The notes under the pieces are model-generated. The model was not told the origin of the DNA. It saw only the letters and a list, made by a program, of their open reading frames with translations, and made no database searches. From contig CAAEFC010000006.1 of the NCBI GenBank assembly GCA_900755065.1, forward strand, positions 31,828-95,827: DNA of 64,000 nucleotides. The letters are read 5' to 3'. Of the stretch, positions 48,450-49,873 are shown in pieces (the stretch's first letter is position 1; every line of letters starts with the position of its first letter). The DNA comes from Bacilli bacterium. Its GTDB lineage: Bacteria; Bacillota_I; Bacilli_A; RFN20; CAG-449. Both the position numbers and the translations under genes were made by a program.

Positions 48450-48461
48450 TTTTTAAAAAAC

Positions 48462-48508
48462 AAATGCGGAAAAAGCACGGATTCTTCCATGCTTTTTTTG
48501 TTTGATTT
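48462..48508 (+). terminator. rho-independent terminator after the tRNA cluster
   Basis: aaaaagcacgg...ccatgcttttttt. Confidence 0.4.
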
Positions 48509-48584
48509 CTCTTCGGCCGTTCAAGTCGATGTGCAACCGTTTAATCCGATGGAACAGGAATCTGTTGGAAAGAGTGCATCTGTC
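48485..48584. repeat. left copy of ~100-bp direct repeat flanking the Bro-N mini-island
   Basis: ttccatgct...cgttcaagtcgatgtgcaaccgtttaatc...ggaaagag.g..tctgtc. It is ~85% identical to 49612..49714 and shares a 29-bp perfect core. Confidence 0.55.
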
Positions 48585-48692
48585 AAAATTCAACATCTAA
48601 TAAAAAAGGAAATACGATTCAGCATAATCAAATAAAACGTATTTTTAAATTAAATAAATAATGTGCTATACTATTTATATAGGAGACAAAAA

Positions 48693-49547
48693 ATGTCAAA
48701 CATTAAGGTTTTTGAAGATAGAAAAATCAGAACGCAGTGGAATGAACAAGAGGAAGATTGGTATTTTTCTGTTGTGGATGTTGTTGGTGTTTTGACGGAT
48801 AGTCCAAACCCAAGAAAGTATTGGAGTGTTCTAAAAACAAGGCTTAAAAAGGAAGGAAGTGAGTTGGCTACAAATTGTAGTCAACTGAAATTACAGTCTG
48901 CCGATGGAAAGTATTATAAACAAGACGTGCTTAACACAAAAGGGTTATTGCGACTTATTCAATCTATCCCCAGCCCAAAGGCGGAACCTTTTAAACTTTG
49001 GCTTGCACAAGTTGGTACAGATAGATTGGACGAAATCGCTGACCCAGAAAAAGCAATGCAACGAGGCGTTGATTTCTATCGACTGAAAGGTTATCCTGCG
49101 GAGTGGATAACCCAAAGACTGCTGTCTATCAAAATTCGTAAAGAACTCACTGATGAATGGAAAGAAAGAGGGATTGAAAAAGAGGCTGATTATGCGATTT
49201 TGACGAATGAACTTACAAAAGCTTGGAGCGGACTTAGTGTTAAAGAATATAAAAAACTTAAAAATTTAAAAAAAGAAAATTTGCGAGATAACATGACAGA
49301 TATTGAGTTGGTTTTAAATCAACTTGCCGAACTTACAACCGCCGCTCTTTCTAAGAAAGAAGAACCACAAACCTTTGATGAAAATAAAAAGATTGCAAGA
49401 CGTGGCGGAAGAGTTGCTGGCGACACCAGAAAACGATATGAAAAAGAACTCGGTCATAAAGTTGTTAGCCCATTAAACGCACATTCAAAAGAAATGTTGG
49501 ATACAAAAAATTCTAAGCGTTTAGCAAGTAAAAAAGATAAAAATTGA
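48693..49547 (+). CDS. Bro-N domain protein (DinD/phage anti-repressor-like)
   Basis: IKVFEDRKIRTQWNEQEEDWYFSVVDVVGVLTDSPNPRKYW...KGLLRLIQSIPSPKAEPFKLWLAQV fits the Bro-N pattern. AT-rich gene, RBS AGGAGA. Start trimmed from the track. Confidence 0.5.
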   Translation: MSNIKVFEDRKIRTQWNEQEEDWYFSVVDVVGVLTDSPNPRKYWSVLKTRLKKEGSELATNCSQLKLQSADGKYYKQDVLNTKGLLRLIQSIPSPKAEPFKLWLAQVGTDRLDEIADPEKAMQRGVDFYRLKGYPAEWITQRLLSIKIRKELTDEWKERGIEKEADYAILTNELTKAWSGLSVKEYKKLKNLKKENLRDNMTDIELVLNQLAELTTAALSKKEEPQTFDENKKIARRGGRVAGDTRKRYEKELGHKVVSPLNAHSKEMLDTKNSKRLASKKDKN

Positions 49548-49611
49548 ACTAATCATAAAAAGCCGAGCGGCTTCTCGTAGATTTTTATTGCGGATTTCAA
49601 AATTTATAATT

Positions 49612-49714
49612 TTCCATGCTGTTTTGTTTGATTCCTTTTCGATCGTTCAAGTCGATGTGCAACCGTTTAATCGATTTGGCAGAGAATCTATCGGAAAGAG
49701 CGCGGTCTTCTGTC
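49612..49714. repeat. right copy of ~100-bp direct repeat flanking the Bro-N mini-island
   Basis: See the left copy at 48485..48584. Confidence 0.55.
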
Positions 49715-49873
49715 GCTTTTCAAATTACAACCCGTTTGCTATGCTGATCGAGGTTTCCTGTTGAAATAAGCGGACGCATCGGATAGAATAATCGTAGAGA
49801 ACGGGCAATTAGACGAATGAAAGCATCCAATCGTTTGGTTGTTTATGCTTATTCTCGAATAGGAGGATCGGAT

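Follow-up and report, generated by a model that had tools for sequence, protein, structure and literature searches.

A candidate defence gene between diverged direct repeats beside a tRNA-Phe terminator in an uncultured gut Bacilli lineage

In the 64-kb stretch of DNA analysed here (the window), one gene of foreign composition lies between two diverged direct repeats next to the terminator of a tRNA-Phe gene. We propose that the two copies, each about 130 nt long, are decayed attL/attR-like junctions of an old insertion that delivered a candidate defence gene beside this terminator, a reading to which we give an even chance of being right. The islet is fixed within its species, an uncultured gut Bacilli lineage known from metagenome assemblies alone, and is missing from the sister species. 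The locus that holds it is demonstrably a multi-use integration hotspot. The parts of the locus are listed in Table 1.

Table 1. Features of the tRNA-Phe locus and of the islet beside it, in window coordinates.
Feature	Position	Strand	Basis or remark
tRNA-Met	47997-48073	+	tRNA prediction, Rfam-confirmed
tRNA-Asp	48295-48370	+	tRNA prediction, Rfam-confirmed
tRNA-Phe (GAA), last of the Met-Asp-Phe cluster	48374-48449	+	ARAGORN; Rfam tRNA, 72 bits
Left copy of the direct repeat	48465-48594	+	Perfect core at 48518-48546; nhmmer E = 2.5e-40
tRNA-Phe terminator hairpin, T-run and GTTTGATTTC, ancestral	48470-48509	+	The sister species conserves nothing else of the left repeat region
Candidate att-type crossover segment TTCCATGCTTTTTTTGTTT, left repeat edge	48485-48503	+	Last host bases before the integrase element of L127
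Two IS66-family target sites in other strains, GTTCAAGT (48519-48526) and GTTTAATC (48539-48546)	48519-48546	+	Junctions in L003/L010 and L004/L013
Hairpin-bearing 65-nt module, flanked by left repeat and cargo promoter	48581-48646	+	88% identity in L029 and L030
Promoter-like site of the cargo gene, TTTAAA-17-TATACT with TG extension	48644-48672	+	Consensus scan only
Cargo gene, 284 aa, N-terminal Bro-N	48693-49547	+	Pfam, PADLOC, PHROGs, low GC
Right copy of the direct repeat	49589-49732	+	Core at 49644-49672; nhmmer E = 3.7e-44
Promoter-like site of the downstream gene, TTGAAA-17-TAGAAT	49761-49789	+	Consensus scan only
Downstream 440-aa orphan gene	49874-51196	+	Mobile-element-type cargo; absent in the sister species

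The two repeat copies were delimited with an nhmmer profile built from both of them, which found no third copy in the 64 kb. By BLAST the pair shows 84% identity over 94 nt (E = 2e-22), in agreement with the preliminary description of this DNA, in which two repeats of ~100 bp and ~85% identity had been reported to bracket the gene. Repeat finding returned a 51-nt run with 92% identity (48496-48546 and 49622-49672) and an extra 14-nt block from 48485 and 49612 at a one-base offset. The 29-nt perfect core that the copies had been said to share, CGTTCAAGTCGATGTGCAACCGTTTAATC, does occur exactly twice in the window with up to three mismatches allowed, against an expectation of zero from shuffles. 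As read from the sequence, the tRNA-Phe terminator has its 5' arm, GCACGGA, at 48475-48481 and its 3' arm, TCCATGC, at 48486-48492, followed by a T-run, and the earlier remark that the left copy begins in this terminator was correct, its start being the descending arm of the hairpin. Of this hairpin, the right copy has kept the 3' arm alone, TTCCATGCTGTTTTGTTT (49612-49629). The repeat contains no tRNA sequence, as it starts at 48465-48485 and tRNA-Phe ends at 48449, a gap of 36 nt when counted to the start in the terminator. Furthermore, the 20-mer at the 3' end of tRNA-Phe (48430-48449) has no second copy in the window, which led us to reject a larger island of the tRNA type with another 3' fragment of tRNA-Phe as its boundary.

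Next to the left copy, the 65-nt module is recognisable in two distant relatives, L029 and L030, both by local alignment (z = 14 and 24) and by blastn, and in L030 the matching sequence sits downstream of tRNA-Phe. No match to the module, or to the conserved block of L025, L029 and L030, was found in IMG/VR or Rfam.

The gene between the repeats had been described as AT-rich and encoding a Bro-N protein, and both points were confirmed: the Bro-N domain (PF02498) scores 45.1 bits against a gathering threshold of 25.6 (residues 11-106, E = 1.6e-11), and the GC content of the gene is 33-40%, compared with 45-55% in its flanks. The further label 'DinD-like' is too strong, since the DinD model (NCBIfam NF008573) gives 24.2 bits against a cut-off of 242 and covers only residues 148-224, a weak likeness in the C-terminal part. 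The protein is a full-length match to the single-gene PADLOC family PDC-S13 (E = 4.9e-127; residues 2-276 align with positions 5-279 of the 286 in the profile) and a member of PHROG 15286 (E = 1.3e-123), a PHROG without an assigned function, and it also has a weak match to the PHROG 'anti-repressor Ant'. The label PDC in PADLOC-DB we take to mean 'phage defence candidate'. A search of the available literature for PDC-S13 found no report, of defence activity or otherwise, and the family is a defence candidate by association only; on the strength of the profile match, the cargo may be regarded as a candidate anti-phage defence gene.

The family is large, with more than 8000 homologous proteins, many at 70-85% identity, and is nearly absent from sequenced phages, where it is represented by four short fragments from viromes, none above 58% identity. 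Close homologs are solo genes in unrelated chromosomal surroundings: a helicase/methylase/Abi cluster in one case, and the neighbourhood of an HTH gene or of an ABC transporter in others. The cargo is thus a horizontally mobile solo gene that is compositionally foreign to its surroundings. The DNA similarity of the homologs to the window ends at the ends of the cargo ORF, and no flanking repeats were found around three close homologs at eight loci. The repeat is therefore a property of the locus and not of the gene, and the idea of a repeat travelling with the gene family was discarded.

The 440-aa gene downstream of the right copy has no match in Pfam or NCBIfam and is rare, with seven homolog clusters in the whole protein collection; the C-terminus of its product weakly matches PDC-M14B in PADLOC. 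Its relatives are found next to a Fic gene and an integrase gene, where a prophage-like element ends, and inside a conjugative element, so this gene is acquired cargo as well. These relatives do not carry the repeat, and the idea that the repeat is a part of this gene was rejected for that reason. We find no support for an array of cassettes or for tandem accretion involving a third site, as there is neither a third copy of the repeat nor any similarity past the 440-aa gene.

About 85 conspecific contigs were read, drawn from three sub-lineages with about 100%, 98.5-99% and 97.7% identity to the window, and wherever a contig covers the region, the gene is present together with both repeat copies. 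Neither an empty site nor an excision product was present among them, and the two matches to the 20-mer of the core in the metagenome collection yielded no empty site either. An empty site with a single repeat copy, the comparison proposed for related genomes, was thus not seen in the conspecific contigs, and the sister species lacks the gene together with most of the repeat. The preliminary description had itself named the same two copies without size polymorphism as a pattern that would refute its reading, and as this is the pattern seen in the conspecific assemblies, the islet is not a recently mobile element.

The nearest other lineage, which includes the GTDB representative, has ~80% DNA identity to the window over 12.4 kb and is therefore taken as the sister species; a neighbouring kinase protein is 97% identical between the two. 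Its tRNAs are identical to those of the window and are followed, 3' of tRNA-Phe, by a 142-aa gene, a homolog of the terminator, a CarD-like gene and feoAB; the Bro gene, the 440-aa gene and all of the repeat beyond the terminator segment are missing. The terminator homolog of the sister genome L118, AAAAAGCGTGGATTCTTCCATACTTTTTTGTTTTCCGATTTC, aligns with window positions 48470-48509 at z = 9.6, and none of 500 shuffles aligned as well. As the sister species keeps the terminator segment only, the repeat can be divided into ~25 nt of ancestral terminator and ~85-105 nt of sequence specific to the window species. The sister locus is consequently no clean attB, for the gene is missing but so is most of the repeat.

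Across strains, four independent insertions fall within ~120 nt of this locus. In strain L104, the final 20 nt of tRNA-Phe (48430-48449), a classical tRNA-type site, run directly into prophage-like DNA. Two other insertions interrupt the core of the left copy at two positions and in opposite orientations; the inserted element has the termini GTAAGCGTAAAAGAAA and has duplicated 8 bp of its target. Terminal inverted repeats that begin with GTAAGCG, together with target duplications of 8 bp, are the signature of the IS66 family (PMC11946415), and the interrupting element is assigned to this family from these two properties. The fourth insertion, in strain L127 (98.9% identical), bears most directly on the repeat. 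This strain is collinear with the window as far as position 48503, ending in TTCCATGCTTTTTTTGTTT; past this position five bases differ and eight agree (CTCTTCGG), and unrelated DNA follows, with the 3' end of a gene for a 384-aa tyrosine integrase near the junction and a gene for an ImmA-like peptidase behind it. The junction, read at one end of the element, lies in the opening 19 nt of the left repeat. A bona fide integrase element thus uses the segment at the left edge of the repeat in the same species, and we infer that TTCCATGCTTTTTTTGTTT is a crossover site; a junction within ~20 nt of a repeat edge would arise by coincidence about once in six times, given a spacer of 243 nt. The arm of the L127 element does not resemble the repeat (z = 0.3-1.2, not significant). 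The element is therefore not the source of the duplication, of which it leaves ~105 nt to the right of the short segment unexplained. Neither its integrase nor its arm was present in IMG/VR. In L134, from a species with 83% identity, an integrase also adjoins the tRNA cluster.

Considering these results, we propose the following scenario for the origin of the islet. An incoming circular DNA may already have contained a relative of the terminator-proximal sequence, and would have recombined with the chromosome at or near TTCCATGCTTTTTTTGTTT, leaving that sequence duplicated on both sides. The recombination genes may then have been lost, or integration may have been performed in trans, and what remained would be a 1.1-kb islet without an integrase, which went to fixation in the species. 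The copies now drift neutrally, with occasional homogenisation by gene conversion. On this reading, a site-specific recombinase would have made the duplication, and an integrase would once have been present. On the side of this relic reading, the repeats bracket a low-GC gene with its own promoter-like site, the cargo is mobile elsewhere, the sister species lacks it, and the locus shows the L127 junction, a hotspot of insertion and a conversion tract between the copies. Against it stand the lack of an empty site, of an integrase remnant and of an attP-like copy, the dissimilarity between the L127 arm and the repeat, and the fact that the repeat, unlike that of classical tRNA-targeting islands, contains no tRNA sequence. 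Furthermore, 1.1 kb is too small for past autonomy unless large and tidy deletions took place.

The searches behind these negative points covered several collections. A tblastn search of the window with three tyrosine integrases gave no integrase or remnant under E = 0.5. No attP-like copy of the repeat was found in IMG/VR, the GTDB representatives or phage records, collections that omit most of the assemblies holding this species, and the same limit applies to the 20-mer of the core, which has no occurrence in 185,579 species-representative genomes and none in IMG/VR. In the metagenome collection the 20-mer has two matches, of which one is a conspecific strain and the other a 26-nt match within a TonB-like ORF of an unrelated GC-rich organism. 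The preliminary description had compared the locus to the att-site duplication of a tRNA-proximal element that has since lost its integrase. The foreign gene, the hotspot, the L127 and L104 junctions and the absence of the gene from the sister species uphold the part of this comparison that concerns integration beside the tRNA, while no empty site, integrase remnant or attP bears out the part that concerns a lost integrase.

Variation between copies and strains indicates how the repeat has evolved since its duplication. The right copy has 92.6-95% identity between strains, compared with 97.7-98.5% for the genome, and hence diverges faster than the genome as a whole. The core mutates independently in each copy, as a different substitution is found in each of the two in L104 and again in L126. 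In L114, all five sites that distinguish the left from the right copy just 5' of the core are switched to the left-copy state, whereas both flanks are of the right type, which marks a short gene-conversion tract. Occasional gene conversion between the copies is a sufficient explanation for the well-preserved centre of the repeat, and the copies otherwise drift neutrally, with no visible constraint on their sequence between strains. The perfect 29-nt core is accordingly not upheld as a conserved crossover site, given the independent mutations and the conversion tract that adjoins it.

These patterns bear on another route to the same topology, namely general homologous recombination, either by a Campbell-type single crossover of circularised foreign DNA with a diverged copy of the spacer from a related donor, or by unequal exchange between strains with different occupants of the hotspot. 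The 29-nt core would then be the longest stretch of identity, and the site of RecA-type exchange or of later conversion. We consider this origin the main rival, though less likely than the relic reading. The homology between the copies is long (130-145 nt) and graded, and does not consist of a short exact core with unrelated arms; L114 directly displays gene conversion between the copies; and no integrase was found in the window and no attP in the collections searched. Moreover, the resemblance of the 65-nt module to the sequence downstream of tRNA-Phe in L030 (88% identity) is expected if the DNA came from the equivalent locus of a relative. However, no donor genome with the spacer and the Bro gene was found, and this route leaves the position of the left repeat edge beside the junction of the L127 integrase element as a coincidence. 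Sequences with ~85% identity are, furthermore, a poor substrate for RecA-mediated exchange, and outside the core the copies offer no better.

Returning to site-specific recombination, the ~130-nt segment could instead be a shared recombination module of integrase-less, single-gene defence cassettes that stack at the tRNA-Phe terminator and are inserted or swapped in trans by tyrosine-integrase elements like that of L127, a proposal we hold to be improbable. If it were true, this uncultured lineage of gut Bacilli would possess a small 'cassette hotspot' system, and the recurrent IS66-family insertions in the core would reflect an unusual feature of the DNA there.

Less probable still, and very doubtful in our view, is that the repeat is a functional cis-element (an operator, an UP-type region, a leader or a small RNA) placed upstream of each of two side-by-side cargo genes. 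Each copy does end 30-50 nt upstream of the promoter-like site of a gene of mobile-element type, and both genes resemble defence candidates in PADLOC. However, homologs of either gene elsewhere do not have the sequence, of which there is no third copy and none in relatives, and the right copy, as noted, diverges faster than the genome. In the copies themselves, Rfam gave no match at E ≤ 10 except a sub-threshold chance hit to STnc430, and folding of both strands of both copies gave z-scores from -0.76 to +1.11 relative to shuffles, with folds that differ between the copies. A structured RNA was rejected on these two results, and with them, and with the lack of constraint between strains, the suggestion that a structured RNA or regulatory element had been duplicated along with its cargo loses its footing. 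A conserved small peptide fares no better. Gene callers sometimes report a 48-aa ORF in the left copy, but the ATG-started ORFs of the two copies lie in different frames owing to a 1-nt indel in the T-run, and L104 carries a frameshift in the left copy. Finally, membership of the repeat in a dispersed family (MITEs, REP-like elements or IS remnants), with copies on both sides of the gene by chance, is hardly credible, for although the left core has received two independent IS66-family insertions and some IS families prefer repeated elements as targets, the copies are direct and have neither terminal inverted repeats nor target duplications of their own, and the repeat, which had been considered as a possible common dispersed element, is represented by two copies in 64 kb, with the 20-mer of its core found nowhere in the GTDB representatives or IMG/VR and twice in metagenomes.

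If the two copies are indeed relics of attL and attR, the islet would illustrate, in clean and minimal form, how one candidate defence gene (PDC-S13) can settle permanently in a chromosome: it would have reached a hotspot at a tRNA terminator, lost its recombinase or never possessed one, and been fixed in one gut Bacilli species while the sister species kept a different occupant. The surrounding 120-nt stretch, with at least four independent insertions (prophage-like DNA, an integrase element and two of the IS66 family), can serve as a natural marker by which strains differ and as a testing ground for how these elements choose their targets. Should the islet still excise, the scar would consist of the terminator, a left-type 5' half, the core and a right-type 3' half, reading ...GATTTCTCTTCGGCCGTTCAAGTCGATGTGCAACCGTTTAATCGATTTGGCAG..., and the junction of the circle would read ...TTTATAATTTTCCATGCTGTTTTGTTTGATTCCTTTTCGATCGTTCAAGTCGATGTGCAACCGTTTAATCCGATGGAACAG.... 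Should TTCCATGCTTTTTTTGTTT be an att core, the far junction of an element of the L127 type would show a second TTCCATGCTTTTTTTGTTT followed by GATTTCTCTTCGG.

The islet is an ordinary kind of bacterial feature and a further example of a familiar type, and it leaves the current understanding of genomic islands unchanged. Among known systems, phage Bro/antirepressor (Ant) proteins and DinD of Escherichia coli share with the cargo the N-terminal Bro-N domain, the weak Ant match and the weak DinD-like C-terminal stretch; however, the cargo does not lie in a prophage, its family is nearly absent from sequenced phages, and its DinD score is far below the cut-off. Another parallel is found in PDC-S13 defence islets at integration hotspots, given the end-to-end match of the cargo, the relatives of its orphan neighbour in prophage-like and conjugative elements, and the close cargo homolog in a helicase/methylase/Abi cluster, though other members of the PDC-S13 family do not have flanking repeats. 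Compared with classical tRNA-gene islands and prophages, the islet has a repeat that starts 36 nt past the tRNA and holds no tRNA sequence, has no integrase and carries a single gene; like them, it is tRNA-proximal and places cargo of foreign composition between direct repeats, and the prophage-like DNA of L104 uses the same tRNA-Phe in the classical manner. CIMEs (cis-mobilisable elements) are remnants of integrative elements that have no integrase but still have attL and attR at their ends, as in the ICESt1/ICESt3 family of Streptococcus thermophilus. The islet differs from CIMEs in that its repeats are ~130 nt long and 84% identical instead of short exact cores, that recognition of the copies by an integrase is only putative, and that no excision, empty site or cognate element with the same sequence was found for it. 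Like CIMEs, however, it is a short, cargo-only segment that is flanked by direct repeats and contains no recombination genes, it shares its site with intact, integrase-bearing elements of the population, and it is one of a series of insertions at this hotspot.

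In the conspecific strain L127, the genes for a tyrosine integrase (384 aa) and for an ImmA-like peptidase lie directly 3' of the tRNA-Phe terminator; the contig stops within this integrase element, which is thus covered at one junction only, and the integrase showed no relative in IMG/VR. The last 20 nt of tRNA-Phe form the junction to prophage-like DNA in L104, a strain 97.7% identical to the window. In the sister species (L118), a gene of 142 aa that has a promoter-like region of its own is located between tRNA-Phe and the ancestral terminator, and the point immediately 3' of the tRNA end in this species is a second insertion point. 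A CCAAGT-rich 47-nt stretch in the L118 region shares 87% identity with the opposite strand of window 4658-4704.

The 29-nt core of the left repeat copy was interrupted twice, independently, by an IS66-family element in two other assemblies (L003/L010 and L004/L013). No IS66-family insertion was found in the right-copy core, which is identical to the left one, in either L003/L010 or L004/L013, and the element itself is absent from the window. The insertions in the left core only may reflect a target preference, or else chance.

Coordinates of the features around tRNA-Phe and in related assemblies (plain coordinates are window positions)
Feature	Location	Strand or orientation	Remarks
IS66-family insertion sites	48519-48526 and 48539-48546	opposite orientations	termini GTAAGCGTAAAAGAAA; 8-bp duplications GTTCAAGT and GTTTAATC
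Integrase element	L127:1-1650		meets window sequence at 48503
Insert region of the sister species	L118:8514-9690
Prophage-like DNA; ~11-kb jump	L104:6341-11110 and L104:1991-3438
Module regions in distant relatives	L029:1-330, L030:7080-7200, L025:7140-7390	-	locus coordinates
Overlapping gene pair	44361-46098		far side of the kinase gene; 216 aa without family, 364 aa with DUF5677

The right repeat copy (49589-49732) exhibited 5-7% divergence between strains, compared to 1.5-2.3% genome-wide (L104, L114, and L126), and in L114 it holds one conversion tract derived from the left copy. The right-copy region is a locally hypervariable spacer. Outside the species, the repeat core was matched exactly over 26 nt (L105:980-1005) within a TonB-C-like ORF; the metagenome contig concerned is GC-rich and unrelated. 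The match encodes ...RLHIDLNG..., a peptide that the window's left copy would likewise encode on its minus strand. These 26 nt exceed the usual extension of a chance 20-mer match.

The 440-aa protein encoded after the right copy (49874-51196) is an orphan: no family in Pfam, NCBIfam, or PHROG contains it, and it has only seven homolog clusters among 5.8 billion proteins. Its relatives (41-43% identity) are set beside Fic and an integrase, and within a conjugative element, and its C-terminal 100 residues weakly match the PADLOC candidate PDC-M14B (E = 4e-11). The overlapping 216-aa/364-aa pair is kept in both the sister species and the 83%-identity species, and showed no match in PADLOC. The L104 contig that carries the prophage junction passes directly from window 51340 to 62552, with microhomology GAAAGCGC at the point of joining, so that ~11 kb carrying a SusE/F-like gene, LacI, alpha-amylase, and sugar-binding genes are missing; this absence may stem from a deletion, from misassembly, or from the variability of the region.

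A 65-nt module (48581-48646), in which GTCAAAWTTCAACAYC is followed by a hairpin and a T-run, is common to the window and distant relatives and showed no match in Rfam or IMG/VR. Downstream of the module, these relatives carry a promoter-like -10 box and a ~70-nt block (CCGCCAGGGAGAGTTCAACCCATCACTTCATTTTTCTAATCTCTTTTGAGTATGGAAG) identical in three species. The L029 region has 31-nt inverted repeats at both ends, and a motif of the GTCAAAAT type occurs four times inside it; judged by this arrangement, the region resembles a segment that is invertible or bound by a recombinase.
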